From Patescibacteria group bacterium (GTDB lineage Bacteria; Patescibacteriota; Microgenomatia; UBA10105; UBA927), in NCBI GenBank assembly GCA_003545435.1, contig DPYI01000025.1, positions 19,701 through 83,700 of the forward strand: 64,000 bases of DNA. Reading direction: 5' to 3'. Below are positions 1 to 16,571 of the stretch, one piece after another. Every line of letters begins with the position of its first letter. Within the stretch, counting starts at the first letter, position 1. A program made the position numbers and the translations under genes. Under the pieces are notes generated by a model. That model was not told where the DNA came from. It made no database searches and saw nothing but the letters and a program-made list of their open reading frames with translations.

Positions 1-273
1 AAAACGGTTATATTCTATGCCTCCTACGTGCGCTGCAAGATTCATGATTATATCCTGATTTTTGCAGGCCTCCCTTGCTGTTTCTCTATCAGTACAATCT
101 CCTTTGATAAACCTTGCTGTGTCTTTTAAATATCCGATATTTTTTACTTTTCCGTCACGCATCATATCCAGAACCGATACGGAGGCGCCAAGCTTTACTA
201 ATTTCTCTACGACAAAACTTCCGATAAAACCCGTTCCTCCTGTTACCAATACATGCTTATTTTTCCAAAACAT
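1..273 (-). CDS. NAD-dependent epimerase/dehydratase family protein, N-terminal 91 aa only (gene continues beyond window start)
   Basis: Reverse-complement of 1..273 translates MFWKNKHVLVTGGTGFIGSFVVEKLVKLG..., a Rossmann GxxGxxG motif typical of SDR sugar epimerases/reductases; ATG at 273..271; no stop before position 1. Not in the supplied ORF track because it is truncated. Confidence 0.6.
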   Translation of the reverse strand, partial: MFWKNKHVLVTGGTGFIGSFVVEKLVKLGASVSVLDMMRDGKVKNIGYLKDTARFIKGDCTDRETAREACKNQDIIMNLAAHVGGIEYNRF

Positions 274-285
274 AGGGAGTTTTTT

Positions 286-1461
286 TTAAGAAAATATTGA
301 AATCAATGTTTTTATTTCCTTATCCGTCAATTCGGGATTATTTCCGAAATACAATCCCTGTTCATGTGCGATATTTGCATTTGTAGGTATGTCGCGTTTG
401 GCACCATTTACGTATTTTAGATAAAACGGTTGTTTGGTCATGTCCCCTCCGACGATAGGTCGTATTTCTACGAGTCCGTTACATTTTTTTACCAGGTCAT
501 CCCGTATCTTTTGAGTTCTACAGACAATAGGTACAGCAAAATTGGATACAATGTCCATGTGATCATAGCGGATGGGATAATACTGTGCGGTATTTCCGTA
601 AATAATCCTCGCTATGGCGAAAAAATTAGATTGACGTTTTTTTACAATCTGGTCAAGATATGACAGCTGAATATTTCCGACAAATCCCTGAATTTCCGTT
701 GTACGTAAATTGTATCCCAGATCATAAAAGGTATATCGTGAATAAAATGTCTCATTGACATGATGTTTGATGCGGATTTTCAGCTGTCTGTCTTGGGTAA
801 GATTCCTGTCCCATCCGTGAGCACGGACAAACTGCAGCATGGTCTCAAGTTCCGTGTTATCAGTACACACCGCTCCTCCTTCTATCGTCGACATGTGATG
901 ACCTACATAAAATGAAAATGTACTGGCCAGACCAAAATTTCCCAGTTTTTTCCCTTTATAAACCGAGCCGAGTGATTCGCAGTTATCTTCTATCAAAAGA
1001 ATGTCTTTCTTTTTACAGATTCTGTATATTTCATCAATGTCATCACAAAAACCAAGTAAATTCGTCAGAAATAACATTTTTATGGGATGCTTCTGGATCG
1101 TTTTCAGAAGAATTCGGGAAGAAACATTCAGCGTGTCAAGCGCACAATCAATGGGCACAGGTTGAAGCCCCAATTCAATAAGCGGCATGACGTTTGTAGA
1201 CCACGTGAGAGCTGAAAAACCGACTGCATCTCCCTTTTTAATTTTTCCCAGGTTAAGAAGTGCCTGAATGATAGCTAAATTTGCACTGCTGCCGCTGTTG
1301 ACAAATACGCAATGTTTCCGTCCCTGATATTTTGCAAAATTATGTTCGAATTTTCCGCATTCTTTTCCGATACTTAGCATGTGTGCATTTTTTATAAAAA
1401 CACACAGTTTCTGTTTTGTATTCTTTTCGTTGTAGAAGGTTGATTTGATAAGCTTGATCAT
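286..1461 (-). CDS. DegT/DnrJ/EryC1-family PMP/PLP-dependent sugar-modifying enzyme, ColD-like 3-dehydratase candidate
   Basis: 391 aa. VNSGSSANLAII is the DegT fold. The active-site segment FSFYVGHHMSTIEGG has His-His where aminotransferases carry the Schiff-base Lys, as in GDP-4-keto-6-deoxymannose 3-dehydratase (ColD, ~388 aa). Also RAHGWDRNL and IRPIVGGD motifs. Confidence 0.75.
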   Translation of the reverse strand: MIKLIKSTFYNEKNTKQKLCVFIKNAHMLSIGKECGKFEHNFAKYQGRKHCVFVNSGSSANLAIIQALLNLGKIKKGDAVGFSALTWSTNVMPLIELGLQPVPIDCALDTLNVSSRILLKTIQKHPIKMLFLTNLLGFCDDIDEIYRICKKKDILLIEDNCESLGSVYKGKKLGNFGLASTFSFYVGHHMSTIEGGAVCTDNTELETMLQFVRAHGWDRNLTQDRQLKIRIKHHVNETFYSRYTFYDLGYNLRTTEIQGFVGNIQLSYLDQIVKKRQSNFFAIARIIYGNTAQYYPIRYDHMDIVSNFAVPIVCRTQKIRDDLVKKCNGLVEIRPIVGGDMTKQPFYLKYVNGAKRDIPTNANIAHEQGLYFGNNPELTDKEIKTLISIFS

Positions 1462-1494
1462 AAAAATCTAAAATACTGAGCTTGCCGAAGTATA

Positions 1495-2655
1495 TTACAA
1501 AAGACCTCTGAATGCATCGGTAAAAATATGATCCCATCTATATTTCTTTGCAAATGCTAACGCATTTTTCCGCATTATTTCCATTTTTTTCTTATTTTTT
1601 AACAGTGAAACGACTGCACGCGCTAGACACCTTTTATCATACGGAACAATCAGAGAGCATCCCGTTTGAAACGATTCCTCGGCAATCGAACCCACATCAG
1701 TCATAATAACCGGCAATCCGCATGCAAAGTACCTCTTTATTTTCCCCGGTTCTGTATGGGTAACAACAGTGTTTGTTGGCGTATATGAAGCGATACCAAG
1801 AGCGGCCTTTGCTACGCGTTTGTCAGTCGTGTCGGGATCTTCTATGTAGCCAATAAATGTAACATGCTTCTCTAAATTTTTCTCTTTTATCATATGTTCA
1901 AGAGACTTCCGATATGGCCCTTTGCCAATGAGTGAAAAATGAACAGAAGGGACAGCGGGAATGATATACTGCAGGGCTTCGATCACCAGCTGAATTCCCT
2001 GACCTTCGACAATTGACCCCAGATACATAACTTCATTTAAAGAAAGGCGTTTTGGTTTTTCTCTATCATATCTTACCCTGACACCATTCGGCGTCACCTT
2101 CTGATTTGGAAATATTCTCTTCCATCGGCTGGTCCGGGCAACTATCATCTGAGGAGCATAATTCCAAGTAGCATCACAAAACACGGCACACCAGTAATCA
2201 AGCCGATGATAGAGAGCGTTCATGAGTGCATGTGAGAAACGCCTTGGGATATAGTCAATCACATAATAAATACACTGGTTAATTTTTCCCGCCATTCGAA
2301 GGAATAATCCGTTAAATGCATTGAGATTTCCCAGTCCGATATAGTAATCGATTTTCCCCGGTACAGAGAGGGTCCAATAGAGAGTAACGATACTGTCTAT
2401 CCCGTACGCAATTGCTTCCGGAAGAAACGACGTTGTTGGTGCCGTACTTTTTTTTATCATTCTGCCGGATTCATACCATTCCCTATAGGATGATCGAACA
2501 CTATTATCCTCCATGGATCGGTTCCGATGTCCGATAAAGACAAGGGTTTTAATGCGACGAGAAAGTAAAAAATCCCTTAGTTCATGCGGCGGACCGAACA
2601 TCGCATCATGACAGACAATAACAGTGGTTTTTCCTCTAAAATCAGGTTTTTTCAT
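1495..2655 (-). CDS. Glycosyltransferase, GT4-like (GT-B fold)
   Basis: 386 aa soluble protein; C-terminal GYIEDPDT...GLPVIMTDVGSIAEE resembles the GT4 EX7E region; 4-nt overlap with the downstream gene. Confidence 0.55.
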   Translation of the reverse strand: MKKPDFRGKTTVIVCHDAMFGPPHELRDFLLSRRIKTLVFIGHRNRSMEDNSVRSSYREWYESGRMIKKSTAPTTSFLPEAIAYGIDSIVTLYWTLSVPGKIDYYIGLGNLNAFNGLFLRMAGKINQCIYYVIDYIPRRFSHALMNALYHRLDYWCAVFCDATWNYAPQMIVARTSRWKRIFPNQKVTPNGVRVRYDREKPKRLSLNEVMYLGSIVEGQGIQLVIEALQYIIPAVPSVHFSLIGKGPYRKSLEHMIKEKNLEKHVTFIGYIEDPDTTDKRVAKAALGIASYTPTNTVVTHTEPGKIKRYFACGLPVIMTDVGSIAEESFQTGCSLIVPYDKRCLARAVVSLLKNKKKMEIMRKNALAFAKKYRWDHIFTDAFRGLL

Positions 2656-3881
2656 GAAGCGTGCATATCAATAAATTTTTGAAAGACTTTTTTCATATAA
2701 ACGATATGTTTTGGAGTTATTCCAGGATAGACGCCGATCCAAAAGCCGTTGTTCATAATCAAATCAGAATTATGTAATGTACCGGCAACACGGTAATCTT
2801 TTCTTTTTAGATACGCCGGATGTTTCAGGAGATTACCGGCAAAAAGATTCCGCGAACCTATTTTGTGCTCCTCCAGATATTTCACCAATTCAAGCCTCGT
2901 AAACGGCGCGTCATCTTTGACGACCAACATAAAACCAAACCAGCAAGGATCAGCTTCTTTTTCCCACCCGGGAAGTATAAAATACTTCTCGTGTTCCTTG
3001 AAAAAAATATAGAAATCTTGAAAATTTTTTTTCCGTTTTTTGATAAATTTCGGAAGCTTCTCAAGTTGAGCTACGCCAATCGCTGCCTGAAAATCCGTAA
3101 GCTTCACATTGTACCCGATCTGTGAATAAATATATTTATGGTCAAACCCTTTCGGAAGGTTGCCTAATTGCCAGTCAAATCTTTTGCCGCACGTATTGTC
3201 GTATCCTGTGTCGCACCAGCAATCCCGCCCCCAGTCACGGAATTGCCTAACGGAACGGTGAATAAGAGGATTATTGGTAACTACCGCTCCTCCCTCGCCC
3301 ATGGTGATCTGATGCGCCGGATAAAAGGAAAATGTTGCTACTGACCCGAACGCACTTACCGGTTTCCCGTTATATTGTGAACCTAACGCGTCACAGCAGT
3401 CTTCGATAAACCAGAGGTCATATTTCTTTACAAGCTCCATAATGCCCGCCAGCGGCAAGGGATTCCCTAATGTGTGTGCCAGCATAATTGCCTTTGTCCG
3501 TTTTGAGACAGCTTTTTGAATCATCTCGACAGTTGAATTTTTTGTAAGGATGTCCACATCGATAAATACCGGAATACACTGGTTTTGTACTATAGGATTG
3601 ACAGTCGTTGGAAACGCGCATGCTGCGGTAATGACTTCATCCCCCGGCTTCAAAGCCCTTTTCCCAAATACGGCCGATGTTAGAGCGGACAAAGCTAACA
3701 AATTTGCAGATGATCCGGAATTCACTAACGAAACATATTTGATTCCGATATAGGAAGAAAATTCCTTTTCAAACTTTTTTGCAAACCGGCCTTCTGTCCA
3801 CCATCCGTCACGTGCTGCTTGTATTGCGTTTGTTACTTCCTTCTGATCAAACACTTTACCGGTTGCTGGAATGTATTTCAT
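2652..3881 (-). CDS. rfbH: CDP-4-keto-6-deoxy-D-glucose 3-dehydrase (E1, RfbH/DdhC/AscC-like), PMP and [2Fe-2S] dependent
   Basis: 409 aa DegT-fold protein (VNSGSSANLLALSAL); His replaces the PLP Lys (FSFYPAHQITMGEGG); the cysteine pattern EDCC-x57-C-W-C-DTGYDNT-C matches the E1 [2Fe-2S] motif C-X57-C-X1-C-X7-C exactly. Confidence 0.85.
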   Translation of the reverse strand: MKYIPATGKVFDQKEVTNAIQAARDGWWTEGRFAKKFEKEFSSYIGIKYVSLVNSGSSANLLALSALTSAVFGKRALKPGDEVITAACAFPTTVNPIVQNQCIPVFIDVDILTKNSTVEMIQKAVSKRTKAIMLAHTLGNPLPLAGIMELVKKYDLWFIEDCCDALGSQYNGKPVSAFGSVATFSFYPAHQITMGEGGAVVTNNPLIHRSVRQFRDWGRDCWCDTGYDNTCGKRFDWQLGNLPKGFDHKYIYSQIGYNVKLTDFQAAIGVAQLEKLPKFIKKRKKNFQDFYIFFKEHEKYFILPGWEKEADPCWFGFMLVVKDDAPFTRLELVKYLEEHKIGSRNLFAGNLLKHPAYLKRKDYRVAGTLHNSDLIMNNGFWIGVYPGITPKHIVYMKKVFQKFIDMHAS

Positions 3882-3897: not shown

Positions 3898-4122
3898 TTA
3901 TTTCTTTGGTTTTGTGAAATAGGCTTCGATTATCAAAAAAACCATTCCTGTGCAAAGGACCATATATGCAAAGGATCCTATCTTTTCAGTATTTCCAAAA
4001 GGATAGAGAATTGTACACAGCATGGCAGATATCAGGGTAATAAAACCTACAGAAATGCAGGCATCAGTCATTATCCGTACCATGCTCGTCAGATGAATCT
4101 GATTATACCTTACTTTTTTCAT
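3898..4122 (-). CDS. Small hydrophobic membrane protein (hypothetical, 74 aa)
   Basis: Fills the only gap between two minus-strand genes; two predicted TM helices; same orientation as the operon. No recognisable motif. Confidence 0.3.
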   Translation of the reverse strand: MKKVRYNQIHLTSMVRIMTDACISVGFITLISAMLCTILYPFGNTEKIGSFAYMVLCTGMVFLIIEAYFTKPKK

Positions 4123-6331
4123 ATTTTCGACTTTTTACATATATCCATAAAACCGTACCTCCGGCAACGGCAGTCAGAAAAATCCCCGCATAGTAAGAGA
4201 GCTGTGGCTGAAAATACAAAAGAAATGACATGCGCAGTTTTCCGTTGGGCAGTTCTTCAACAAACTCTTTCGAATAGGTCTTTTTCAGATACTCCGGATC
4301 CAGATCCCAGCTGTTGGCCCATCCGTACAGAATATTGTGATTGTGGTCAGGAATCTGTATTCCTTTCCGAAAAATTATACTCTTCCCGTAGGATTTTTGA
4401 GGGATAGGGTACAATTTCCACCATCTGGAATAATTTTCCAGAAGCACTAAAGAGACTGTATCAGAAAAACCCGATATCCGGATGCGTATCTGGACCGGAT
4501 TTTCCCTTTCATACTCAAAAGATAGTGAGGGGTCCTCATCTGCCAGTGATACAAGATCGGATCTGCATGTGTCTTTGACACCATACATGTATATGCCGCT
4601 TTTCTCCTGACCCAATATCTCTTTTGACTGAATGTCGAAAGACGCATCCAGGATTGAGATAATGCTTGATTGAGGAATTTCAATTTTCGTCTCATCAGCA
4701 TAATCTGTCCGTACGACAATATGGGAAATTCCCAATTCCCCAGCTTTTGTACAAAAAGATTGTCCTTCTCGTATGAGCCTCATCAAGGTATTGGTTTGTT
4801 TTTTATACGGAAGGTCCACGGAGTAGCCAGTGGGGTCGGGGCTTATGACGGGAACTTTCCATAATTCATAAATGAAATCAATGCCGGAATACCCGTTCAT
4901 TGACTGATTGAATTTCGGATACACACCGTATGTTCCGGGCAAAAGGAGTATGCGCGTCGCTTTTTCCATTTTCAGCCTATTTCCTGCATCAACGTAATAG
5001 TCTGGTATATGAAATGACGTCAGTCCGCCGGCAAAAATAAAACTATACACCAGCCAGCCGATGCATCCTCCGAACACTATGCCTGCTGTCACTCGTAATA
5101 CAGTTCGGAACCTAGCCATTCTCTCTTCAAAAAAAGCAAGCCCCATCATTGAAAGAGAGATATAAAAGAAGAAAAACTCCCAATAGAATTTGCTGACCGG
5201 ACGTCTGAAAATCTGAAATCCGGGTATGTGTTCATACAAAAACTGAAACATATTTCCCCACGGTTCCCTGACCCCTTTTGAAATAAACACTCCTAAAAGA
5301 AGCAGTCCAAAAAAAATGCGGATACCCGGATTTCTCTGTCTTTGAAAAAGTGCATATCCTAAAAAAACTGTCATGAGGAGAAACAAAAGAGGAAGAGGAA
5401 AGCGGAAATAGCCAAAATAGGAAGGCGTATCATACAGTTGACCTTCAGCGCGCCCTAAAAAAATATTTCCTATTGTCGAAAATCCCGTTGCTGCTACTAC
5501 TCCTGACATAAGCGGATTGGTTTCATACTGCGCATGTGAAAAAAATTGTGTCACGAGAAACGGAATAAGCCACCACGAACATGCTAAAATCATGAGTATG
5601 AATACCAAAATATATCGTTTGACCGTCCGAACAGACGGTATACGGGAAAGAAGAATCGAAAAAAGAGCATATGCACTAAAAATTATTGCCAGTATGTATG
5701 GTACGGAGATGCTGTACGCTGCTCCTGACACAGAACTGAAGAACAGGAGAAAAAGAAGCAAAACTTTTTTGTATGATATGTTCTGTTCTTCCAATATATG
5801 AACATAGAACAACAAAATCCAGGGGAAGAGCGCATACAGAACAAGACTCAGGAAATGACCGGGTGCAATAAGACCTATCGGGTATGGTGAAAATCCATAA
5901 AGCTCCGCTCCGATGAAAGACCAAAAGAATGTTCTATGCTTTTTTAAATTCAACGAATGAACCAAATATTCCTGAAGAAACTGAAACATTGATACCTGCG
6001 ACAGGAAAAGAAGAAGGCTGATAAAAAAAAGAACGCTGAAATGAGGAGACACATGAAGCTGGGATAAAACCCACATAATCACATGGTAGGGAAAAAGCGT
6101 TGATAATTGAGGCGTGCTTTCATACCCTGCCGTATGGAGCGGATCATAGACAAACAGGTGGTTTCCAATCTCATATGCAAGGTCAACCGGAGAAGAAAAA
6201 TCACAGCTCCCTGCGAGGGGGTATATCGCATTGGAGCTTTTCCAGAAAAAAGGAGCCAGTGACAGGCAGGCAAAAAAAACGTATGGAAGAATGTTCTTTC
6301 TGTGTGATAGAAGTTTTGTCAAAAGCTTCAT
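4103..6331 (-). CDS. Large polytopic membrane protein (742 aa), putative GT-C-type glycosyltransferase/polymer-modifying enzyme
   Basis: More than 12 hydrophobic segments in the N-terminal 430 aa, a ~250 aa hydrophilic domain, then a C-terminal TM helix; start overlaps the upstream stop (ATGA). Confidence 0.55.
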   Translation of the reverse strand: MKLLTKLLSHRKNILPYVFFACLSLAPFFWKSSNAIYPLAGSCDFSSPVDLAYEIGNHLFVYDPLHTAGYESTPQLSTLFPYHVIMWVLSQLHVSPHFSVLFFISLLLFLSQVSMFQFLQEYLVHSLNLKKHRTFFWSFIGAELYGFSPYPIGLIAPGHFLSLVLYALFPWILLFYVHILEEQNISYKKVLLLFLLFFSSVSGAAYSISVPYILAIIFSAYALFSILLSRIPSVRTVKRYILVFILMILACSWWLIPFLVTQFFSHAQYETNPLMSGVVAATGFSTIGNIFLGRAEGQLYDTPSYFGYFRFPLPLLFLLMTVFLGYALFQRQRNPGIRIFFGLLLLGVFISKGVREPWGNMFQFLYEHIPGFQIFRRPVSKFYWEFFFFYISLSMMGLAFFEERMARFRTVLRVTAGIVFGGCIGWLVYSFIFAGGLTSFHIPDYYVDAGNRLKMEKATRILLLPGTYGVYPKFNQSMNGYSGIDFIYELWKVPVISPDPTGYSVDLPYKKQTNTLMRLIREGQSFCTKAGELGISHIVVRTDYADETKIEIPQSSIISILDASFDIQSKEILGQEKSGIYMYGVKDTCRSDLVSLADEDPSLSFEYERENPVQIRIRISGFSDTVSLVLLENYSRWWKLYPIPQKSYGKSIIFRKGIQIPDHNHNILYGWANSWDLDPEYLKKTYSKEFVEELPNGKLRMSFLLYFQPQLSYYAGIFLTAVAGGTVLWIYVKSRKYEKSKV

Positions 6332-7260
6332 GTGGGTTTTCGTTGAAATAGCAGCTTTATGACTGCTGAAGCTATCAAATGAACAGATAAACCGTTTTGA
6401 TCATGCATATATTCCTGCAAACCGATTTTTTCCGTAAACCTATCAGGGACACCCATGCGCTGAAAGGGCGTTCCCAGCGATGACTCTGCAAGCACTTCGC
6501 TCACCGCACTGCCCAAACCTCCGATAATGCTATGATCCTCAAGGGTAATGACTGCATGTGTTTTTTTCGCACTCTCGAGAATAAGAGGAGCATCAATCGG
6601 CTTTATTGTATGCATGCTGATGACGCGCACCGAGCAGCTCTTTTTTGCAAGCAGCGCTGCCGCTTCCAATGCCCGAGAAACAAGCGTGGAGGTTGCAACA
6701 ATAGTTGCATCGGATCCATCCTGCAGAATGATCCCTTTCCCGATCCGAAAACGCGGTTCTTTGTTGTAAAGAATTTTTTCTCCGGCTTTGCCTAAACGAA
6801 AATACACTGGTGTGTTCGTTGTCAGCATTGCTCTCGTTGCGAGATGAACTTCCGTAGGATCTCCGGGAGCAATAATAGTCATATCAGGAAGTGTTCTTAA
6901 AATGCCGATATCTTCAAGACTATGGTGTGTGTGGCCGTATGGTCCGTAGGAAAATCCTGCTCCAACGCCGACTATCTTTACATTGAGATTCTGATAACAG
7001 ATGTCGTTCCTGATTTGTTCAAAATTGCGCATTGTCACAAAGGGAACAATGGAATATATAACCGGTTTATATCCTTCCATCGCTAAACCGGCAGCAACGC
7101 CGGTCATATTCTGTTCCGCAACCCCGGCATTGAGATACTGTTTCGGAAGTTCCCGCATAAAGTTCTCGAATGCGGAAAACCCCAGATCTCCTGTTAGGAG
7201 AATAATCCGATTGTCCTTTTTGGCTTCTTCCAAAAGCGTCGCGGCAAATGTATTTCTCAT
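6328..7260 (-). CDS. Transketolase, C-terminal (pyrimidine-binding) subunit of a split transketolase
   Basis: 310 aa; GVAEQNMTGVAAGLAMEGYKPVIYSIVPF and C-terminal transketolase domain motifs; adjacent to the N-terminal subunit. Confidence 0.85.
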   Translation of the reverse strand: MRNTFAATLLEEAKKDNRIILLTGDLGFSAFENFMRELPKQYLNAGVAEQNMTGVAAGLAMEGYKPVIYSIVPFVTMRNFEQIRNDICYQNLNVKIVGVGAGFSYGPYGHTHHSLEDIGILRTLPDMTIIAPGDPTEVHLATRAMLTTNTPVYFRLGKAGEKILYNKEPRFRIGKGIILQDGSDATIVATSTLVSRALEAAALLAKKSCSVRVISMHTIKPIDAPLILESAKKTHAVITLEDHSIIGGLGSAVSEVLAESSLGTPFQRMGVPDRFTEKIGLQEYMHDQNGLSVHLIASAVIKLLFQRKPT

Positions 7261-7268
7261 GGGAGTAT

Positions 7269-8090
7269 TTACGAACCTCTGTCTAATATTTCCATTACTT
7301 CTTTATATTCATCTTCCGTAGGAGGTTTATACTGTGATGAAATCTGATTGACGTGTTTTGCGACTCCTCCCCGCCCTTTTATTGTATGCGCGATGATAAC
7401 TGACGGATTCCCTTTGGTGAAAGGAACGGAAGTGAAAGCGTCAACGAGCTGTGTAAAGTTATGACCGTCAACCTCTCGGGCTTCCCAGCCGAATGCTTCC
7501 CATTTCTCAGCAAACGGCTCCAGGTCAAGGACGTTTTTCGTATATCCGAATCCCTGAAGCTTATTGTAATCAACGACAGCAATGAGGTTGTCGAGCTTGT
7601 GCTGTCTGGCAAACAGAACCGCTTCCCATGTGGATCCCTCGTCGCACTCACCGTCAGAAAGGATTGCGTACACTTTCCATTGTTTCCTGCGTTGTTTTCC
7701 GGCAAGAGCAACTCCTGCTGCCATTGCTAGCCCGTGACCAAGGGACCCCGCCGACGCTTCGATACCAAAACTCACATTCCTCGTGGAATGACCGGCGAGC
7801 AAGCCGCTGTCCATCTCATACCCATCTAACACCCGTCTGTCAAAAAACCCCCGCTGGGAAAGAACCGCGTACAATGCTTTCGCATCGTGTGCCTTGCTGA
7901 AAATCAAACGGTCTCGGTTGTCGTTGGAAGGATCTTTTGGAAATACGCGCATAACACGGAAATAGAGGGCAACCAGTATTTCGACACATGACAGCGCTCC
8001 TCCCGTGTGGGCGCTTTGAGCCCGGAAACTCATCATAAGAATTTGTTTTCGGATTTCTATAGCTATCTTTTTCAGTTGTCCTATGGACAT
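7269..8090 (-). CDS. Transketolase, N-terminal (TPP-binding) subunit of a split transketolase
   Basis: 273 aa; SAHTGGALSCVEILVALYF...GHSTRNVSFGIEASAGSLGHGLAMAAGVAL is the TPP-binding transketolase N-domain. Confidence 0.85.
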   Translation of the reverse strand: MSIGQLKKIAIEIRKQILMMSFRAQSAHTGGALSCVEILVALYFRVMRVFPKDPSNDNRDRLIFSKAHDAKALYAVLSQRGFFDRRVLDGYEMDSGLLAGHSTRNVSFGIEASAGSLGHGLAMAAGVALAGKQRRKQWKVYAILSDGECDEGSTWEAVLFARQHKLDNLIAVVDYNKLQGFGYTKNVLDLEPFAEKWEAFGWEAREVDGHNFTQLVDAFTSVPFTKGNPSVIIAHTIKGRGGVAKHVNQISSQYKPPTEDEYKEVMEILDRGS

Positions 8091-9028: not shown

Positions 9029-10095
9029 ATTTTTTTTGTTCGCATGGATAAACGTTTCATTTCCGACCAGCTATATCCAAATACCATGAGGAGAGACATA
9101 ATCGGATGGAGAAACCACGCGATATCAGGTTTTGATATAAATCCCTTCACGCTTATATATAAGGGTTGAATGATTGTTAGAGAAAATACTATAAATGCAG
9201 TTAAGTTGCGGCGGTCTTTGGGGGAATGGGAGTTATAGACTAAATATCTCCGTTTTCCCTTCAGGGTATCCGTAAAATACTTTTTTACCTCCACCCGCCT
9301 TATTACCTGATCCATAATATTCGGGCGGGAAACATGAATGATGCTGTTTTTTACGACGCCTACTGTATCATACCCCATACAAAGAAGCTCTCTATATCCG
9401 TCTGTATGGTAGAACGGCTTCCCTTTTCGGACCACTTTCCTAAAAACTTCAGCGCGTATCATACATCCATTATCTCCCATAACAGGCTGGTTATCTTCAG
9501 TGAACCGGACTATAGTATATTTTTGTGTATCTTTTATTATTTCCCCTTTATCATATTTCATCTGATCCATGCGGATTTTATCTGACTTTTTCAAATAGTA
9601 CAGTGTCGGATCGGGGGATCCGATTAATGCAAAGTATTTCGTAAGAATATCATCAGACGGATCGTATCCATTGTGCATGGAAAACGTCGAAAAAACATCT
9701 TTTTCCTTAAAAGGAGCCACCATGTCAGTCAGCCAACTTGACGAAGTCATTATGTTGTCCGATTGTAAAATCAAAACGATGTCTTCCTTGATATATGATA
9801 AAGCCCGGTAATAACGACCTAATCCTTCATTCTGATCATTTATAAAAGATAATATCCGGGGGTGATATTGACGTGCGACGGCAAGCACCTTTTTATGGCT
9901 TCCTCCGTCCAATATATAATGCCGGAATAGCCCCTTATACCGTTGTTTGCGTACAGCCTCAAGACATCTGGTAAACACTGCGATGTTTGGATTAAACGTA
10001 TTGGTGATAATTGCAATGGAAGGATTACTCATGGGTAGTGTGAATCTATAATTCATCTTTTTGTATGGTATTTTTCTGTTTCTTGTACCATGCAT
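9025..10095 (-). CDS. GT2-family glycosyltransferase with C-terminal membrane anchor
   Basis: 356 aa; N-terminal SIAIITNTFNPN... GT2-like; C-terminal hydrophobic helices. Start uncertain (alternative ATGs at 10056 and 10032), which affects the overlap with the SDR gene. Confidence 0.5.
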   Translation of the reverse strand: MHGTRNRKIPYKKMNYRFTLPMSNPSIAIITNTFNPNIAVFTRCLEAVRKQRYKGLFRHYILDGGSHKKVLAVARQYHPRILSFINDQNEGLGRYYRALSYIKEDIVLILQSDNIMTSSSWLTDMVAPFKEKDVFSTFSMHNGYDPSDDILTKYFALIGSPDPTLYYLKKSDKIRMDQMKYDKGEIIKDTQKYTIVRFTEDNQPVMGDNGCMIRAEVFRKVVRKGKPFYHTDGYRELLCMGYDTVGVVKNSIIHVSRPNIMDQVIRRVEVKKYFTDTLKGKRRYLVYNSHSPKDRRNLTAFIVFSLTIIQPLYISVKGFISKPDIAWFLHPIMSLLMVFGYSWSEMKRLSMRTKKI

Positions 10096-10912
10096 GCAAT
10101 CGAAGCAGTGATTGATAAAAAGGCGTAAAAGTTATCTGTGGCATTTCATTTTTCAATCTCGTGATATCGCACGTATATTCATTTGCTAACTCCTTTTTCT
10201 TAACATAAATCATATGCTTTTCTTTCCCCAATCTCGTGATTGTTTTGGCAATCGTCATGAGATTAATCTTCTTTCCGGTTCCGATATTGTATGCTCTGTA
10301 TGCAGGCTTATTTTTAATAAAATGATCAATTATGGGTGCCAAATCCTGAACATCCATATAGTCAAAATAGACATCCTGCTTCATCGTGATTGGTAACCCA
10401 TGGATATATCTGCATAATGCATTTGAAATAAATCGGTGTTGATAATTTTCCCCCTCTCCAAAAATTCCAAAAATCCGAAGGTCTATCATGTTATCGGTTT
10501 GATGAATGTAGTTTGAACATATGTATTTATACAACCCGTATTCATCGTTGGGAATTTGCTTCCCAAAATCTTTTTCCTTGATGTTGACTATCGGATGCCT
10601 CTTGTCGTACACAGCGCCCGATCCGATATGAATCAACCGTTGATAATATTTTCTGCACCGAGCAAGATTAAAAAAAATACAGATATTATCATAAAACATA
10701 CCTTTAACAAATAAATGAGGTCCGTTGCTTCCAACTACGGCGCAATGAATGACGATATCGACTTTATTTATTAAAAAATAGGATTGCACCTTCTTTTCAT
10801 CAAGCAAATCTAATTGTCTGTGATTCGGAGTTAGTAATGTATATTTTTGAGAAAGGGCAGTTTTCAGATGTGTTCCAATAAATCCGGTGGAACCCGTAAT
10901 GAGTATGTTCAT
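10046..10912 (-). CDS. NAD(P)-dependent SDR sugar reductase/epimerase (CDP-abequose/paratose synthase-like size)
   Basis: Start moved to internal MNILITGSTGFIGTHL (ATG 10912); 288 aa; YGLYKYI gives the YxxxK catalytic motif; divergent from the TPP-enzyme gene. Confidence 0.65.
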   Translation of the reverse strand: MNILITGSTGFIGTHLKTALSQKYTLLTPNHRQLDLLDEKKVQSYFLINKVDIVIHCAVVGSNGPHLFVKGMFYDNICIFFNLARCRKYYQRLIHIGSGAVYDKRHPIVNIKEKDFGKQIPNDEYGLYKYICSNYIHQTDNMIDLRIFGIFGEGENYQHRFISNALCRYIHGLPITMKQDVYFDYMDVQDLAPIIDHFIKNKPAYRAYNIGTGKKINLMTIAKTITRLGKEKHMIYVKKKELANEYTCDITRLKNEMPQITFTPFYQSLLRLHAWYKKQKNTIQKDEL

Positions 10913-11042
10913 AATCTTACAACCTGGCAAGTTTCTCCAGTCATCGTCCAGAAAAGCGTTTTTATTTTATCACAATCGATTTAGATTTTTTTCATATTCT
11001 ATCTCTAAGAGATATGCAACTGGCACATACTACCTTCTATTA

Positions 11043-11071
11043 TTGATTTATCCTTTGTGTTTAAGGATAAT
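11043..11071 (+). promoter_or_regulatory. Candidate sigma70-type promoter for the plus-strand TPP-enzyme gene, in the 178-nt divergent intergenic region 10913..11090
   Basis: TTGATT (11043..11048), a 17-nt spacer, then GATAAT (11066..11071); ATG at 11091. Confidence 0.3.
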
Positions 11072-11090
11072 ACCACTGTTACGTAATTTT

Positions 11091-12872
11091 ATGTATTCCC
11101 GCGTTGCTGACTACATTATTGATTACATATACCGGCATGGAACCGACACTATTTTTACCGTTGCCGGAGGCGGAGCAATGTTTCTGAACGATGCGGTAGC
11201 ACTGCATAAGAAAATCACATATATATGCAATCATCATGAACAGGCTTCCGCCATGGCAGCTGAAGCGTATGCAAAAACGAAGGGCCACATTGGCGCGGCT
11301 ATGATCACCTCAGGACCCGGAAGCACGAATGCCATTACCGGCCTTATGGAGGCCTACCAAAATTCAATTCCTGTTATTTTCATCTCCAGCCAAACAAAAA
11401 AATCTCAAATGATTGCGTATTCAGGGATTACTGGATTAAGACAGTTTGGGATTCAGGAAGTGGACATTATTCCGGTCGTCAAACATCTCACTAAGTACGC
11501 AGCTATTGTGGAAAAACCGGAAGACGTACAATACCATTTAGATAAAGCCTATTATGTAGCTCTTTCCGGTCGCCCTGGGCCGGTATGGCTGGATATTCCT
11601 TCTGACGTGGCTTCTTCCTCATTACCCCAACACCGTACCATGTTTACGATTCCGCAACAGATGCACAATGGTGTAACAGATGAACACATTAAAAAAATTA
11701 TTTCTTTGCTACGTAAATCAAAAAAACCTCTCATTATAGCCGGCGGCGGCATAAAACTGGCAAAAACAAGAAATGAATTCCGGGCGTTTATAAACAAATC
11801 AAAAATACCCGTCGTCTGTCCTGATATGGGTATTGATATTCTTGAATACGATAACCCATATTATGTCGGCCACGGAGGCACAAAAGGCGACCGCGCCGCC
11901 AATATCGTCATTCAACAGAGCGATCTTATCATATCTTTGGGGAGCCGCTTGGCAGTACCGTTTATCGGACACGAGTATGACACGTGGGCACCGAATGCCT
12001 ATAAAATTGTTGTGGACATAGACGAAAGCGAACATAAGAAAAAGACGATTACTATAGATTTATTTATACACAGCGATGTCAAACAGTTCCTAAAAAAATT
12101 AAACGCGTGTCTAAACAAATCTTCTATTAAAGACACATGGATACATTATTGTCAGAATATTAAGAAATCATATGCTTTAAAATATGCAACAGTCTCAACT
12201 GATAAAACACAAGAGATAAATATGTATGATGCAATTCACGAAATTTCCAACCAATCCAAACCGAATGATGTTTTTATTACCGATGCAGGAATTACAGCCT
12301 ATGTATCTACTCAGACAATAAAAATTAAAAAAGATCAAAGGCTGATTCTTCCGGGAGCCACTCTCACTATGGGATACAATCTGCCGGCAATAATTGGTGT
12401 TTGGGCAGCTGATCGCCATGCGCGGATAATCTGCATCACCGGAGATGGATCATTTCAGATGAATATCCACGAGTTGGCTGCTATTACGCACAATAAAATA
12501 CCTGTAAAGATATTTATTATGAACAATCACGGGTATCTGGCTATTCGGACGACCCAAAAAATTTTTTTTAATAAGCGTTTGATCGGTGAAGGACCAGAAA
12601 CCGGTGTCTCTTTCCCAAATACAGAAAAAATAGCCCAGGCGTATGGTTTGAAGTATTTCTGCATAGAATTCAAAAAGGACCTTCACAAAACTATTAAAAG
12701 GGTTTTAACCTGTAAAGGTGCAGTCATCTGTGATTGCATCCTGCCATATTGGCAGGACCACATTACCGTATCATCAAAAGAACTTGAAACCGGAAAAATT
12801 GTTTCTCTGCCGATAGATGATATGTATCCCTATCTATCCGATGAAGATAAATTGTCAATAAAATCTATTTAG
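11091..12872 (+). CDS. TPP-dependent acetolactate-synthase-family enzyme (YerE-like candidate C-C bond-forming enzyme)
   Basis: ORF start trimmed to MYSRVADYIIDYIYRHGTDTIF (ATG 11091); 593 aa; three-domain ALS architecture, with a GDGSFQMNIHELAAITHNKIPVKIFIMNNHGY TPP/Mg-binding motif. Confidence 0.8.
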   Translation: MYSRVADYIIDYIYRHGTDTIFTVAGGGAMFLNDAVALHKKITYICNHHEQASAMAAEAYAKTKGHIGAAMITSGPGSTNAITGLMEAYQNSIPVIFISSQTKKSQMIAYSGITGLRQFGIQEVDIIPVVKHLTKYAAIVEKPEDVQYHLDKAYYVALSGRPGPVWLDIPSDVASSSLPQHRTMFTIPQQMHNGVTDEHIKKIISLLRKSKKPLIIAGGGIKLAKTRNEFRAFINKSKIPVVCPDMGIDILEYDNPYYVGHGGTKGDRAANIVIQQSDLIISLGSRLAVPFIGHEYDTWAPNAYKIVVDIDESEHKKKTITIDLFIHSDVKQFLKKLNACLNKSSIKDTWIHYCQNIKKSYALKYATVSTDKTQEINMYDAIHEISNQSKPNDVFITDAGITAYVSTQTIKIKKDQRLILPGATLTMGYNLPAIIGVWAADRHARIICITGDGSFQMNIHELAAITHNKIPVKIFIMNNHGYLAIRTTQKIFFNKRLIGEGPETGVSFPNTEKIAQAYGLKYFCIEFKKDLHKTIKRVLTCKGAVICDCILPYWQDHITVSSKELETGKIVSLPIDDMYPYLSDEDKLSIKSI

Positions 12873-12887: not shown

Positions 12888-13847
12888 TTACCGGTACGAT
12901 TGAGTCTTTTTATACCACACATATGTTTGTTGCAAACCCCTTCTCAATGAATGCGTATTTTTCCATCCCAACGCCCTTATTTTGTTATCATTCAGGTGCT
13001 GATATGGAATTTCACTTTTTGCTGAATTGAGAATTGTGTAGTGTATGTGCTTCTTTAGAATTTTTTCAGTGTTTTTTATCAAATCTAGGACAGAAAAATT
13101 ATTGTCAGATGATATATTAAAAGCCTGACCTGCTGTTCTCTTCATATGCCGGATTAGAAATGCTGTAGCCAGAGCTATATCTTTAACATAAACATAATCC
13201 CGTATATATGTTCCATCGCTTCGAACCTCAAGTACGGAGTTTGTAATCAGCGCTTTACATATTCCGGGAATAATCCTATCAAAATGTATGTCTCCTTCTC
13301 CAAACACGTTGCCAAACCGCGTAACGATAACCGGTAATCCATATGTTTTTCCATACGTCTGGGCTATGAGATCCGTGCAGGATTTGGATACATCATATGG
13401 ATGATCACCTTTCAGGGGGGATTCTTCCGTATACGGTTTGGTTGTCTTTCCGTATGCTTTGTCAGAAGAAGCTACAAGAATACCTTGTATACCGGCTGTA
13501 CGCCTGCATGCCTCCAGCACATGCACAGTACCCATAATGTTTGTTTTAAAAACATCATAGGGATTATCATACGCTTCCTGGACTATCGGAAGAGCCGCCA
13601 GATGGATAACATACGTTGGACTAACTGACGCAAATACTGCTTCAACTTTTTCTCTTTTTGTTATATCTATAATTTGATAATTTGTTTTCTTGTCTAATGA
13701 TTTCAGAAAAAAATACGATTTGCAGGGGTTTTGAATATCTATGACGGTAACGTCATATTTTTTTCGTACTAGCAGTTCTACGAGATGAGCCCCGATGAAT
13801 CCTGCTCCGCCGGTAACCAGTACACGGAGGGGTTCTAATCGTTCCAT
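12888..13847 (-). CDS. CDP-glucose 4,6-dehydratase-like SDR (RfbG/DdhB-like)
   Basis: Start set at MERLEPLRVLVTGGAGFIGAHL (ATG 13847); TNIMGTVHVLEA and HPYDVSKSCTDL (YxxxK) resemble the CDP-glucose 4,6-dehydratase signatures TNVMGTVHLLE and DPYSNSKGCAEL; immediately downstream of rfbF. Confidence 0.65.
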   Translation of the reverse strand: MERLEPLRVLVTGGAGFIGAHLVELLVRKKYDVTVIDIQNPCKSYFFLKSLDKKTNYQIIDITKREKVEAVFASVSPTYVIHLAALPIVQEAYDNPYDVFKTNIMGTVHVLEACRRTAGIQGILVASSDKAYGKTTKPYTEESPLKGDHPYDVSKSCTDLIAQTYGKTYGLPVIVTRFGNVFGEGDIHFDRIIPGICKALITNSVLEVRSDGTYIRDYVYVKDIALATAFLIRHMKRTAGQAFNISSDNNFSVLDLIKNTEKILKKHIHYTILNSAKSEIPYQHLNDNKIRALGWKNTHSLRRGLQQTYVWYKKTQSYR

Positions 13848-14620
13848 ATTTTCCAGGGAGGAGACTGTTCTTTCCATAGAGAGTTTAACCGCTCCACGTC
13901 TGCATAGGTGTCCATAGAATGCCAAAATCCTCTATGGATATACAGAGACAATTCACGTTTTTTTATGAGACGTTTCAATGCCTGGTGTTCCATTTCCCCC
14001 TTTTTAAGGTAATCGAAAAAACTATATTGGAAAATCATGAATCCGCCATTCACCCAATCCCGAAGCACCGGTTTTTCTATAAATTCAGTAATGACATTCC
14101 ATCTATTGATATGAACTAATCCGTATTTGCTCCGGGGGTACACTCCCGTGATAGTACCTGTAGTTTTTTGTTTTTTATGAAATGAGACCAATTCCTTAAC
14201 ATCTATATCCCCCACACCGTCTCCGTAGGTAACCATAAAATCTTCATTGTTTGGAATATAATCCTTTATCCTTAGAATCCGTTCTCCGGGAAGAGTATCA
14301 AGTCCCGTGTCAACAAACGTAATTTTAAAATCATCAATGCGTTTCCCGTCGGTTGTATCTCTGTAAATTTTGGCATACCCTGTTTTTGTCGATAACGTAA
14401 AATCATGAATAAAATATTTCTGATTGAGGAAATAATCCTTTATATATTCACCCTTATATCCCAATGCAATGATAAAGTCATTACATCCGTAATGGGAATA
14501 GATTTTCATAATGTGCCAGAGGATCGGTTTGTTTCCAATAAAAACCATTGGTTTTGGCTTAAATTCTGTTTCCTCTTTCAGGCGATATCCTATTCCGCCG
14601 CACAGAATAACTGTTTTCAT
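13835..14620 (-). CDS. rfbF: Glucose-1-phosphate cytidylyltransferase
   Basis: 261 aa; MKTVILCGGIGYRLKEETEFKPKPMVFIGNKPILWHIMKIYSHYG...PPWKIWND aligns along its whole length with Salmonella RfbF (MKAVILAGGLGTRLSEET...KPKPMVEIGGKPILWHIMK...APWKTWE). Confidence 0.9.
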   Translation of the reverse strand: MKTVILCGGIGYRLKEETEFKPKPMVFIGNKPILWHIMKIYSHYGCNDFIIALGYKGEYIKDYFLNQKYFIHDFTLSTKTGYAKIYRDTTDGKRIDDFKITFVDTGLDTLPGERILRIKDYIPNNEDFMVTYGDGVGDIDVKELVSFHKKQKTTGTITGVYPRSKYGLVHINRWNVITEFIEKPVLRDWVNGGFMIFQYSFFDYLKKGEMEHQALKRLIKKRELSLYIHRGFWHSMDTYADVERLNSLWKEQSPPWKIWND

Positions 14621-14854: not shown

Positions 14855-16522
14855 CTACTTCATACAATTCCTAATTCTCAAAACAACATCGTTTGTTATA
14901 TCAATGACCTTATGATCCGTAGAATCATAGTAAAATCCACGAATCTGATCAGAGTTGAATTTATTATTACACGAGTCTTTTTTAAGCAAATCAAGTGAAT
15001 GATAATATCCAAATCCTTGACCTCCGTCTTCAAAATAGCCTTGCTCAAGCATTCCCCAAAATGACATATCATATATTAATTTTTTTGGAATTTTTCCTGT
15101 ATCGTAAAAGAGAACCATAAATGTGAAACCGGGCCCCTGCTGGAGAGGCAGTCTCATGCCGGATACGCCATAAAAGCTTTCTGCGCTTCCCGTTGCATAC
15201 AATACGGGTTTTTCGGGAAGATCCGGGTATATGACCCGGACAGACTGAAGCATATTCTTCCGCTCTTCTCCGATAATTTTCTGATGCCGTATATCGCGGA
15301 TAATATATACACTTTGTTTATAGAGATACCCAACAGTAAATAAGGAAATACAGACTATAACTAATAATCGTAAATTTTTATTTTTATGACTTAATTCAAC
15401 AATTGAGGCTATTAAGCCCGAGATTAATAATCCGCCGGCTGCTGCCGCGAAAGAAAAATATCGGGAATCGAGATATTCACCGTTTCGATTTACTAAAGAA
15501 AACGGAATAAACGACACTACAAGAAGCAGGAATGAAATCAGGATAGCAAAGCGGTATTTTTTCCCAAAAAATAAAACACTGCTCATTCCAATAAACAAAA
15601 GAAGCGTACACCAAAGACCGACAATGTCAGTCATCATCAACTCCTGCACCACATGAATATTTTCAATATGTATGAGGCGTTCATAGCGGGACGAAAAAAC
15701 AATAGTAGATATAAAACGCATAACAGGAAGAGGAATAAATGTTTCACTGAAAGATATAAGGGGATACAGAAACGCATTTATTAGTATCCCTATCATCGGA
15801 GTTCCGCTTGATTCTGTTACTGCAAGCTGACTTTTCCATCCATGTATAAATATATCTGCAATCCGTACAATGATAATGAAAACAATGAATATAAAAAGAC
15901 TTGTATATCGTATGAATTCATCTTTCAATCCACCCAGGTCCCGCTTAGGTGCAGTAAATATGGGAAGAAGAGGCATCCAGGCAATGCTTGATTCCTTAAA
16001 GTAGTATGAAATAACCGCGCAGACAATACACCATATTCTCTTCTTCTTCAAAGCAAGGACAATTGACAGAAGCATAAAAAAAAGCGAGGGAAGAGCGGTA
16101 AATGACGTTGCCAGCCATGATACCGACTGATGACTTGCATAGCACACAGCATAAGATAATCCAGCAACGGTTGCAAAGATATGGGGAATGCCAAGAAGTC
16201 GTGCTATTTTACGAACCAATAATCCATTTATACTATGAACAAAAAGTGCAAATACTGCCCAGGGCAGAACATTCGTGCCGAACATATGAAACAATGAATA
16301 CTTGAGAACAGTGGAAAACGGACGATTTAAACCAACCAGAAGCAGGTGCAACGGAAATACTGACAATTCGACCTCGATTCCTCCAATCTTCGCAAGTCCC
16401 AATGAAACCCATTCATCCTGCTGGTAAAACGTAAATGGGAGATCGCGAAATGCGAAGAGGGCAAAACCTATGATAAGAAGCATTTCAAATACAGATACTA
16501 TGGTATAAGGTTTTTTCCTCAT
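14855..16522 (-). CDS. Polytopic membrane protein, paralog family E (putative GT-C glycosyltransferase/polymerase)
   Basis: 555 aa, more than 12 TM segments; C-terminal domain ...GQGFGYYHSLDLL...KVIDITNDVVLRIRNCMK is paralogous to 16679..18376. Confidence 0.55.
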   Translation of the reverse strand: MRKKPYTIVSVFEMLLIIGFALFAFRDLPFTFYQQDEWVSLGLAKIGGIEVELSVFPLHLLLVGLNRPFSTVLKYSLFHMFGTNVLPWAVFALFVHSINGLLVRKIARLLGIPHIFATVAGLSYAVCYASHQSVSWLATSFTALPSLFFMLLSIVLALKKKRIWCIVCAVISYYFKESSIAWMPLLPIFTAPKRDLGGLKDEFIRYTSLFIFIVFIIIVRIADIFIHGWKSQLAVTESSGTPMIGILINAFLYPLISFSETFIPLPVMRFISTIVFSSRYERLIHIENIHVVQELMMTDIVGLWCTLLLFIGMSSVLFFGKKYRFAILISFLLLVVSFIPFSLVNRNGEYLDSRYFSFAAAAGGLLISGLIASIVELSHKNKNLRLLVIVCISLFTVGYLYKQSVYIIRDIRHQKIIGEERKNMLQSVRVIYPDLPEKPVLYATGSAESFYGVSGMRLPLQQGPGFTFMVLFYDTGKIPKKLIYDMSFWGMLEQGYFEDGGQGFGYYHSLDLLKKDSCNNKFNSDQIRGFYYDSTDHKVIDITNDVVLRIRNCMK

Positions 16523-16571
16523 ATATACATGCAGAGATTAGAATCAATAACAAAACCTGATGGTTTGTCAC

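Follow-up and report, generated by a model that had tools for sequence, protein, structure and literature searches.

The window analysed here (the whole stretch of 64,000 nucleotides, ~39% G+C, with nearly every gene on the minus strand) comes from an uncultured groundwater Microgenomates bacterium of the candidate phyla radiation, and its start falls inside a very large glycan-synthesis island. Close to this start lie two open reading frames (ORFs) predicted to encode nucleotide-sugar 3-dehydratases of two types dependent on pyridoxamine 5'-phosphate (PMP): an iron-sulfur-free ColD-like enzyme and an iron-sulfur enzyme of the E1 type. The first-pass annotation, made from the sequence alone, had placed them about 1.2 kb apart. 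Both ORFs were verified at the coordinates below, on the minus strand; the gap between the two genes is 1190 bp and is filled by a single gene of glycosyltransferase family 4 (GT4), with a 4-nt overlap at the E1 stop codon. The features of this part of the window are as follows (PLP, pyridoxal 5'-phosphate; NDP, nucleoside diphosphate; SDR, short-chain dehydrogenase/reductase).

Positions 1..273, minus strand: Fcl/ColC-like extended SDR (first 91 of 322 codons), predicted NDP-4-keto-3,6-dideoxyhexose epimerase/4-reductase, continuing past the window start.
Positions 286..1461, minus strand: ColD-type (iron-sulfur-free, His188) PLP/PMP-dependent NDP-4-keto-6-deoxyhexose 3-dehydratase, 391 aa, assigned from Pfam, PDB and fold matches.
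Positions 898..900, minus strand: codon of His188, at the Schiff-base lysine position of aminotransferases, from alignment with ColD His188.
Positions 1495..2655, minus strand: GT4 glycosyltransferase, 386 aa (Pfam Glycos_transf_1).
Positions 2652..3881, minus strand: E1 (RfbH/DdhC/AscC) CDP-4-keto-6-deoxy-D-glucose 3-dehydratase with a [2Fe-2S] motif, 409 aa, assigned from NF011936 and 3bcx.
Positions 3312..3314, minus strand: codon of E1 His190 (= His220 of Yersinia E1), aligned with the lysine of the H220K entry 3bb8.
Positions 3189..3395, minus strand: four putative [2Fe-2S] ligands, Cys163, Cys221, Cys223 and Cys231, from the motif and alignment with Yersinia E1.

In enzymes of both types, a PMP ketimine is formed at C4 of an NDP-4-keto-6-deoxyhexose, an active-site histidine takes the C4' proton and the 3-OH is expelled (PMC8987622; PMC10440746). 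In the E1 reaction, the resulting PMP-glucoseen is reduced via a [2Fe-2S] cluster with electrons from E3 (PMC8987622). In the ColD reaction, the adduct is hydrolysed to an enamine, which tautomerises and loses ammonia, and PMP is regenerated from glutamate (PMC8987622; PMC10440746).

The ColD-like ORF contains FSFYVGHHMSTIEGG and matches the Pfam family DegT_DnrJ_EryC1 (PF01041, 6.8e-61). Its top PDB match is E. coli ColD (2gms, E 3.2e-57, HMMER), to which it is 34.5% identical, the identity to E1 being 29%. His188 aligns with ColD His188, the residue altered in the H188N and H188K entries 3b8x and 2r0t, and the motifs EDNCES, RAHGWDRNL and EIRPIVGG are aligned with LEDNCES, RAHGWTRNL and ECRPIVTG of ColD. 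The ColD-like size and motifs and the histidine at the Schiff-base position, all proposed in the first-pass annotation, were thus found again in the alignment. The proposed lack of an iron-sulfur cluster motif was borne out as well: neither C-x-C nor C-x-C-x7-C occurs in this ORF, and the region matching the E1 cysteines reads RAHGWDRNLTQDRQLK. On the RfbH model NF011936 it reaches 213 bits and fails the cutoff of 423. The AlphaFold (AF2) model (pLDDT 80, pTM 0.83) has the type I fold (DegT/aspartate aminotransferase), and a Foldseek search with this model placed ColD first (TM 0.79), followed by E1 and then by GDP-perosamine synthase. Arg219 and Arg334 align with conserved arginines of ColD and are also present in E1, so that they do not discriminate between GDP and CDP.

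Position 187 is occupied by glycine (VGHH) instead of the Ser187 of ColD, and Gly187 is found throughout the candidate-phyla clade described below, gmd-linked members included. In ColD, Ser187 precedes His188 and is mutated in the aminotransferase-converting variant S187N/H188K (PDB 3gr9); to regard this residue as family-defining is our own judgement.

Two signs of an aminotransferase had been named beforehand, a lysine after proper alignment and characterised aminotransferases as the closest homologs. His188 stands at the lysine position in every alignment, the nearest homolog is ColD, and a lysine-type aminotransferase was rejected as a candidate. By sequence and predicted fold, ORF 286..1461 is a member of the ColD-type 3-dehydratase class. 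The public record (Microgenomates group bacterium GW2011_GWC1_43_11; proteins 100% identical) names both ORFs "DegT/DnrJ/EryC1/StrS aminotransferase", despite which neither has a Schiff-base lysine. Twenty-two contigs encode the ColD-like protein with 100% identity. For both ORFs, chance similarity is ruled out by the E-values.

ORF 2652..3881 is also a DegT_DnrJ_EryC1 protein, and it had been taken for the iron-sulfur E1 type, which its score, catalytic histidine (His190) and four-cysteine motif confirm. It reaches 636.2 bits on the NCBIfam RfbH equivalog NF011936 (cutoff 423), aligns end to end with Y. pseudotuberculosis E1 (3bcx; 499 bits, E 9e-149) and is ~54-60% identical to E1. Its cysteines are spaced C-x57-C-x1-C-x7-C, which we take to be the [2Fe-2S] ligand spacing of E1 known from the E1 literature, and are aligned to Yersinia E1 CCDALG...RDCYCAPGCDNTC. 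The residue following the catalytic histidine is Gln in the window protein versus His in known E1. On these matches, the protein is a textbook E1/RfbH.

No ferredoxin-reductase-type Pfam family, as expected of E3 (DdhD/AscD), was found among the called genes of the window and its 10-kb flanks. A scan for plant-type ferredoxin cysteine motifs yielded no window ORF; this is a weak, crude test, which found almost none in 84 E1-centred loci either. In place of an E3, none of which is encoded nearby, E1 would likely receive its electrons from a general ferredoxin system, as with SpnQ, or from a Fer4 protein like that of the related locus L050. There, on a 1.02-Mb Microgenomates contig (L050:3746-7235), a 331-aa protein with two 4Fe-4S motifs (Fer4/LdpA_C) is a candidate E1 donor; it has no homolog in the window. 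The E1 module of L050 also has a haloacid dehalogenase-type (HAD) hydrolase and an HMGL-like aldolase adjoining an enzyme dependent on thiamine diphosphate (ThDP), a set resembling the aldolase-linked ErwE/ErwF system, which makes longer acyl-branched sugars (PMC9306805).

The claim that no ColC-type reductase is recognisable nearby was overturned when the window's own contig (L001 in our numbering; other L numbers denote related loci) was followed past the window start. The claim was a window-edge artefact, because the window start cuts the gene of an Fcl/ColC-like SDR after 91 codons. The full gene (L001:11189-12157) starts 12 bp past the ColD-like stop, and its translation begins MFWKNKHVLVTGGTGFIGS. 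Its top NCBIfam match is GDP-L-fucose synthase (203 bits, below cutoff), and its nearest PDB entry is GDP-L-fucose synthase 7ll6 (E 2.8e-53), with GDP-mannose 3,5-epimerase also among the matches; by sequence it belongs to the ColC/Fcl enzyme class. A second Fcl-like SDR gene lies three genes beyond the first, scores 302 bits on the Fcl model and is nearest to GDP-fucose synthase.

The distribution of the ColD-like gene was followed in 43 loci, comprising the window and 42 genome loci of candidate phyla (Microgenomates, Levybacteria, Saccharibacteria, Woesebacteria, Parcubacteria and Moranbacteria) with orthologs of 54-82% identity. Every ORF of these loci was clustered, frequent clusters were annotated, and linkage was scored within 10 kb. 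Several of the ortholog-bearing genome records are titled "uncultured Gammaproteobacteria"; their gene content is Patescibacteria-like. An ortholog of the Fcl-like SDR adjoins the ColD-like gene or lies near it in 26 of the 43 loci, and GT4 orthologs flank the ColD-like and Fcl-like genes in 16. A Gmd homolog (TIGR01472, 385 bits) is present in 8/43 loci and ManC in 4/43. Tight operons occur in the orders gmd, ColD-like, Fcl-like (L043, L045), ColD-like, gmd, Fcl-like (L047, L048) and gmd, ColD-like (L040); Gmd and/or ManC is found within 10 kb in L020, L024, L029, L032, L033 and L038.

A neighbour-joining tree built from 122 family members groups the window protein with the gmd-linked proteins in one clade of 11 leaves without E. 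coli ColD; the window protein is missing from the ColD clade of 7 leaves. The motifs VGHH, RAHGWDRN and EIRPI/VxGD are common to the window protein and the gmd-linked members of its clade. His188 is invariant in 34 close homologs, and His also stands at this column in all 43 orthologs. A scan of 1.84 billion representatives returned 675 proteins at E<=1e-30, a very large family of the His-type without the iron-sulfur cluster; among the full-length representatives examined, His is present in 110/110 and C-x-C-x(6-8)-C is missing from 109/110. The clade of characterised ColDs occupies a small part of the family, which is otherwise almost entirely uncharacterised. The gmd operons, together with the shared clade and motifs, are the main argument that the window clade would be the candidate-phyla counterpart of ColD and the Fcl-like SDR its ColC.

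In eight relatives (L014-L019, L021, L025) a 311-aa SDR with the motif ASTSHVYG...YETSK was found, directly upstream of the ColD-like gene in six of them and one to three genes upstream in L014 and L016. It was considered as a second 4,6-dehydratase and rejected, its nearest matches being GalE-type epimerases and its motif T-S-H, not D-E or D-K; this motif resembles that of Gmd with His replacing Glu. In six relatives (L013, L015-L019), an SDR similar to CDP-tyvelose 2-epimerase (9rl0/1orr, E ~1e-38) lies a few genes downstream of the ColD-like/Fcl-like pair. The two SDRs could form a route from CDP-glucose via CDP-mannose to a 3,6-dideoxy sugar in these relatives; neither was found in the window.

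Upstream of E1 there follow, in order, a GT-C membrane protein, a split transketolase, two family 2 glycosyltransferases (GT2), an SDR of 294 aa and, divergently, a ThDP enzyme of the acetohydroxyacid synthase (AHAS) family. Beyond the latter lie an NDP-glucose 4,6-dehydratase and then an RfbF-type glucose-1-phosphate cytidylyltransferase. The features in question are the following.

Positions 6328..8090, minus strand: split transketolase-like ThDP enzyme (N half 7269..8090, C half 6328..7260), with Pfam Transketolase_N, Transket_pyr and Transketolase_C.
Positions 10046..10930, minus strand: extended SDR, 294 aa, candidate YerF-like side-chain or C4 reductase of the E1 branch (Pfam Epimerase/RmlD_sub_bind).
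Positions 10887..12872, plus strand: AHAS-family ThDP enzyme, candidate YerE-like branching enzyme, called 593 aa, probable start near 11091 (Pfam TPP_enzyme_N/M/C).
Positions 12888..13925, minus strand: NDP-glucose 4,6-dehydratase, motif SSDKAYG...YDVSK, true start probably downstream of the listed TTG (NCBIfam, PDB).
Positions 13835..14620, minus strand: RfbF-type glucose-1-phosphate cytidylyltransferase (TIGR02623, PDB 1tzf).

The cytidylyltransferase reaches 275 bits on TIGR02623 versus a cutoff of 300, and matches PDB 1tzf over its full length (E 6.7e-63), the next match being at 3e-15. The 4,6-dehydratase scores 185 bits on the dTDP-glucose model and 170 bits on the CDP-glucose model, both below cutoff. 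The AHAS-family enzyme scores under every acetolactate-synthase cutoff; its YerE-like label follows from its three TPP domains and its gene association with E1 and the SDR, as distinct from a sequence comparison with YerE. YerE, a ThDP enzyme, uses pyruvate to attach a two-carbon branch to CDP-4-keto-3,6-dideoxy-D-glucose, which is the E1 product, and YerF reduces the branch (PMC9306805). Because of this chemistry on the E1 product, the window E1 together with the AHAS-like enzyme and the 294-aa SDR looks yersiniose-type.

Eighty metagenome loci centred on E1 (53-76% identity to the window E1) gave the wider context of these genes. Homologs of the AHAS-family enzyme (27-43% identity, AHAS/YerE-like) stand beside E1 in ~34 of them, the split transketolase in 5-6, and the cytidylyltransferase/dehydratase pair in most; the ColD-like gene is present in 0/80. 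The order ThDP enzyme, SDR, E1 was found in L050 and L051, and relatives of the 294-aa SDR (39-58% identity) co-occur with E1 in L057, L061, L063, L065, L135 and L136. The halves of the split transketolase recur directly upstream of E1 (N half, C half, E1 in L052, L054, L067, L073, L134 and L136); in L124, a truncated 2.4-kb contig, the N-terminal half was found by itself, downstream of E1. The window has both the split transketolase and the YerE-like enzyme. The former may, instead of the latter or alongside it, pass a two-carbon ketol unit on to the 4-keto-3,6-dideoxy sugar; we know of no characterised transketolase in a sugar-branching role.

In a first neighbourhood screen of the 42 genome loci, E1 had not been seen within 10 kb of the ColD-like gene. 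The notion that the pairing is unique to the window genome was rejected on finding both genes in one locus in L052/L053, L137, L010+L050, L018+L134 and L138+L135. The pairing recurs in at least five other candidate-phyla lineages. Being seen in several other loci, the combination is a recurrent feature of Microgenomates-type islands and not a one-off. The order E1, GT4, ColD-like, Fcl-like is kept in L052/L053 (E1 77%, ColD-like 83% identical), with the GT4 ortholog of L052 61% identical and unchanged in position; the two genes are 15-17 kb apart in L010+L050, L018+L134 and L138+L135. In L137, a 439-aa E1-like protein (L137:8664-9983), 48% identical to the window E1, is encoded by a gene that ends 18 bp before the ColD-like gene; it carries SFYPPHH, a variant C-x-C-x10-C and a single Cys in an EDNCD motif, and it may be a third subtype of iron-sulfur 3-dehydratase. 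The gene orders in the followed contigs are as follows (TK_N and TK_C, transketolase halves).

L050: cytidylyltransferase, dehydratase, Fer4 protein, HAD, HMGL-like, ThDP enzyme, SDR, E1.
L052: cytidylyltransferase, dehydratase, SDR, GT2, TK_N, TK_C, E1, GT4, ColD-like, Fcl-like.
L134: cytidylyltransferase, dehydratase, aminotransferase, acetyltransferase, GT2, TK_N, TK_C, E1.
L138/L135: a similar arrangement.

In L050 and L134, the cytidylyltransferase/dehydratase pair stands between the ColD-like module and the E1 module; in L052 it is found upstream of the two. YerE-like/SDR or transketolase genes remain beside E1 in these contigs. Within 10 kb of the ColD-like gene, the pair was found in 10 of the 43 loci (also in L137 and L138), never together with gmd. 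As evidence for a CDP-sugar substrate of the ColD-like enzyme, this linkage was weakened by the position of the pair, which assigns it to neither enzyme. The presence of the pair is explained by E1, since E1-centred loci without a ColD-like gene usually have it.

The explanation that we favour, with moderate confidence, is that two independent branches meet in the locus, in a single dense run of minus-strand genes. By way of E1, a 3,6-dideoxyhexose would be made that is CDP-linked and probably C-branched; the ColD-like and Fcl-like enzymes would make a colitose-like sugar from GDP-4-keto-6-deoxymannose supplied elsewhere in the genome. The division into two modules is supported by the Fcl-like and GT4 genes, which track the ColD-like gene (26/43 and 16/43), by the E1-centred loci devoid of it, and by the YerE-like/SDR or transketolase genes, which keep to E1 wherever the cytidylyltransferase/dehydratase pair stands.

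In the first module, the RfbF-type cytidylyltransferase and the 4,6-dehydratase would produce CDP-4-keto-6-deoxy-D-glucose. E1 would form the PMP ketimine, His190 would abstract the C4' proton, the 3-OH would leave, and single-electron reduction of the glucoseen intermediate could proceed through the [2Fe-2S] cluster. The YerE-like enzyme and/or the split transketolase would probably then add a branch at C4 of the 4-keto-3,6-dideoxy product, and the 294-aa SDR could reduce the branched product to a yersiniose-like sugar.

The second module would consist of the GT4 enzyme (1495..2655), the ColD-like enzyme (286..1461) and the Fcl/ColC-like SDR (273..1 and beyond). Its most likely substrate is GDP-4-keto-6-deoxy-D-mannose, derived from a Gmd encoded elsewhere in the genome; the gmd operons of relatives, the shared clade, the shared motifs and the GDP-fucose-synthase-like SDRs point to this GDP-mannose origin. 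The ColD-like enzyme would perform the same 3-elimination via His188 without an iron-sulfur cluster; the PMP-bound enamine would be hydrolysed to the 3-deoxy-4-ketosugar and ammonia, and L-glutamate would regenerate PMP. The SDR would then epimerise and reduce this product to a colitose-like 3,6-dideoxy-L-hexose, for which the GT4 enzyme is likely the transferase.

A number of observations weigh against these two separate branches. Neither gmd nor manC was found in the ~78 kb inspected of the window contig (record positions 22384-100080 of the 108.6-kb contig), as the first-pass annotation had already noted of gmd for the near surroundings. Among the loci of >= ~70% identity, Gmd within 10 kb is confined to L024, where it is 8 kb off, and the sole 4,6-dehydratase pathway seen near such loci is of the CDP-glucose type. 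Iron-sulfur-type and ColD-type genes recur together in varied arrangements, once 18 bp apart (L137), which could mean a shared substrate pool; the CDP-tyvelose-2-epimerase-like SDR of the six relatives also fits poorly with the proposed scheme. No E3 reductase for E1 was found in the window (the cysteine-motif test being weak). The window enzyme is only 34.5% identical to ColD, compared with 62-67% among characterised ColDs (PMC10440746), and has Gly187 for Ser187; the functions of its clade are predicted from sequence. The missing gmd linkage is weak evidence, because in many ColD-like/Fcl-like loci no 4,6-dehydratase at all is encoded within 10 kb.

The strongest of the other explanations, possible if rather unlikely in our estimate, is that the ColD-like enzyme uses the CDP-4-keto-6-deoxy-D-glucose of the locus (or a CDP-mannose-configured derivative) as an alternative to E1, independent of the iron-sulfur cluster and E3 and drawing on the same pool; together with the Fcl-like SDR it would yield a CDP-linked 3,6-dideoxy-L-hexose such as ascarylose. 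The window and its flanks have no NDP-hexose 4,6-dehydratase pathway other than that of the RfbF-type enzyme and the dehydratase with the D-K motif, which speaks for this route, as do the failure to find gmd in ~78 kb, the pair near the ColD-like gene in 10/43 loci, the single pair between the two modules in L010/L050, L018/L134 and L138/L135, the tyvelose-2-epimerase-like SDR in six loci and the lack of an encoded E3. However, the position of the pair fits neither enzyme specifically and E1 accounts for its presence, and with so many ColD-like/Fcl-like loci devoid of a nearby 4,6-dehydratase the missing linkage says little. Members of the same clade, with no motif differences, stand in tight gmd-colD-fcl operons, and the partner SDRs are nearest to GDP-sugar enzymes. 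Our literature search found no ColD-type enzyme acting on a CDP-sugar, and a 2022 review lists only GDP, CDP (E1) and dTDP (SpnQ) as 3-dehydratase specificities (PMC8987622).

In its boldest version, which we regard as somewhat more doubtful still, the Microgenomates ColD-type enzyme would have switched to the CDP-4-keto-6-deoxyhexose produced by the sole 4,6-dehydratase pathway of these loci, giving an iron-sulfur-free, reductase-free and glutamate-driven route to CDP-3,6-dideoxyhexoses beside E1 from one pool. If the ColD-like enzyme did use a CDP-sugar, it would represent a fourth substrate class for nucleotide-sugar 3-dehydratases and the first ColD-type enzyme of this kind, could serve as a reductase-free biocatalyst for CDP-dideoxy sugars, and would explain the co-recurrence of iron-sulfur-type and ColD-type genes in minimal genomes without E3.

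It is improbable, in our view, that the ColD-like enzyme acts on another NDP-4-keto sugar (GDP-6-deoxy-4-keto-heptose as in C. jejuni HS:5, or a dTDP or UDP sugar) or that its clade performs a related but different PMP chemistry. The ColD-type enzymes of C. jejuni do accept heptose substrates (PMC10440746), the 675-member His-type family is almost wholly uncharacterised, and the low identity to ColD and Gly187 would be compatible with a different substrate; against this, the locus showed no heptose-pathway genes, and the colitose scheme agrees with the conserved pairing of the enzyme with the Fcl-like SDR and, in relatives, with gmd. That ORF 286..1461 is an ordinary sugar aminotransferase making a 4-amino sugar, which might feed a formyltransferase ~9 kb downstream, is extremely unlikely: its DegT-family membership and the downstream PurN-like formyltransferase and WbqC with no lysine-type DegT nearby would suit it, but the Schiff-base position is His188, not Lys, likewise in the 43 orthologs and 110 family representatives, and the closest characterised homologs are dehydratases, with aminotransferases >=95 bits lower.

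The genes past the window start (L001:12108-21107) encode acyltransferase_3, the second Fcl-like SDR, WbqC, two GH130-like proteins, a B12-binding radical SAM (S-adenosylmethionine) enzyme (PhpK/HpnJ-like), a PurN-like formyltransferase and a SAM methyltransferase. This formyltransferase lies ~9 kb downstream of the ColD-like gene, and no lysine-type sugar aminotransferase was found within 10 kb of the latter. Between the GT-C gene and E1, an ORF of 74 codons (3898..4122, minus strand) is gene-called in all assemblies; its hydrophobic product is predicted to be a small membrane protein and matches no family. On the other side, positions 14855..64000 of the window (mostly minus strand; L005, L006) form a continuous glycosylation island of ~50 kb, in which >15 large multi-pass membrane proteins (YfhO, PMT_2, MptA_B/GT-C-like, 450-830 aa) are encoded among GT2 and GT4 genes and an FkbM methyltransferase. 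For a genome of ~1 Mb, an island of this size represents a very heavy investment.

The analysis corrects database names, in that two "aminotransferases" are predicted dehydratases. It also defines a conserved, uncharacterised ColD-like subfamily of candidate phyla (~34% identical to ColD, with Gly187, 54-83% within the clade). Organisms with tiny genomes would appear to devote genes of their very large glycosylation islands to two or more rare 3,6-dideoxy sugars, of which one is probably C-branched.

Among known systems, ColD (WbdK) of E. coli O55:H7 and Y. pseudotuberculosis has in common with the window enzyme the fold, His188, the lack of an iron-sulfur cluster, the motifs and the length class; the Fcl/ColC-like SDR adjacent in the window and the gmd-linked operons of clade relatives add to this likeness. 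The window enzyme differs in belonging to a separate candidate-phyla clade and in having neither gmd nor manC in the inspected 78 kb. The C3-dehydratase of C. jejuni HS:5/HS:11 is likewise a PLP-dependent, glutamate-using and ammonia-releasing enzyme of the ColD type, acting on GDP-6-deoxy-4-keto-heptose (PMC10440746); unlike the window enzyme, it is 62-67% identical to ColD and falls in the ColD clade proper, and it belongs to a heptose pathway whose genes were not seen in the window locus.

The window E1 agrees with E1 of Y. pseudotuberculosis and Salmonella in the equivalog match, the catalytic histidine, the cysteine motif and the linked rfbF/rfbG-type genes. It differs in having no E3 (DdhD/AscD) gene in the window, whereby it resembles SpnQ, which uses general ferredoxin/flavodoxin reductases (PMC8987622). 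SpnQ, the dTDP-4-keto-2,6-dideoxyglucose 3-dehydratase of spinosyn synthesis, is an iron-sulfur enzyme of the E1 type without a dedicated E3, as would be the window E1; its substrate, however, is a dTDP-linked 2,6-dideoxy sugar of secondary metabolism, and the window E1 is much closer to DdhC.

The nearest system as a whole is the Y. pseudotuberculosis O:6 cluster, in which ddhDABC and yer genes are combined with gmd-colA-colB-manB-manC for the synthesis of yersiniose A and L-colitose (PMC5399914). Both loci combine an E1 pathway with ThDP branching and reductase genes and a ColD-type pathway in one polysaccharide locus. Yersinia O:6 has gmd, manB, manC and ddhD (E3), none of which is present in the window locus, whereas the latter has an additional split transketolase and a candidate-phyla host without a classical O-antigen. 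The first-pass annotation had concluded that two 3-dehydratases imply either two dideoxy sugars or a novel substrate. Two sugars are the better supported part; the pairing alone implies no novel substrate, given the gmd-colD-fcl operons and Yersinia O:6. This cluster makes two mechanistically different 3-dehydratases in one polysaccharide locus a known arrangement, and with so direct a precedent the arrangement is an ordinary one to a specialist.

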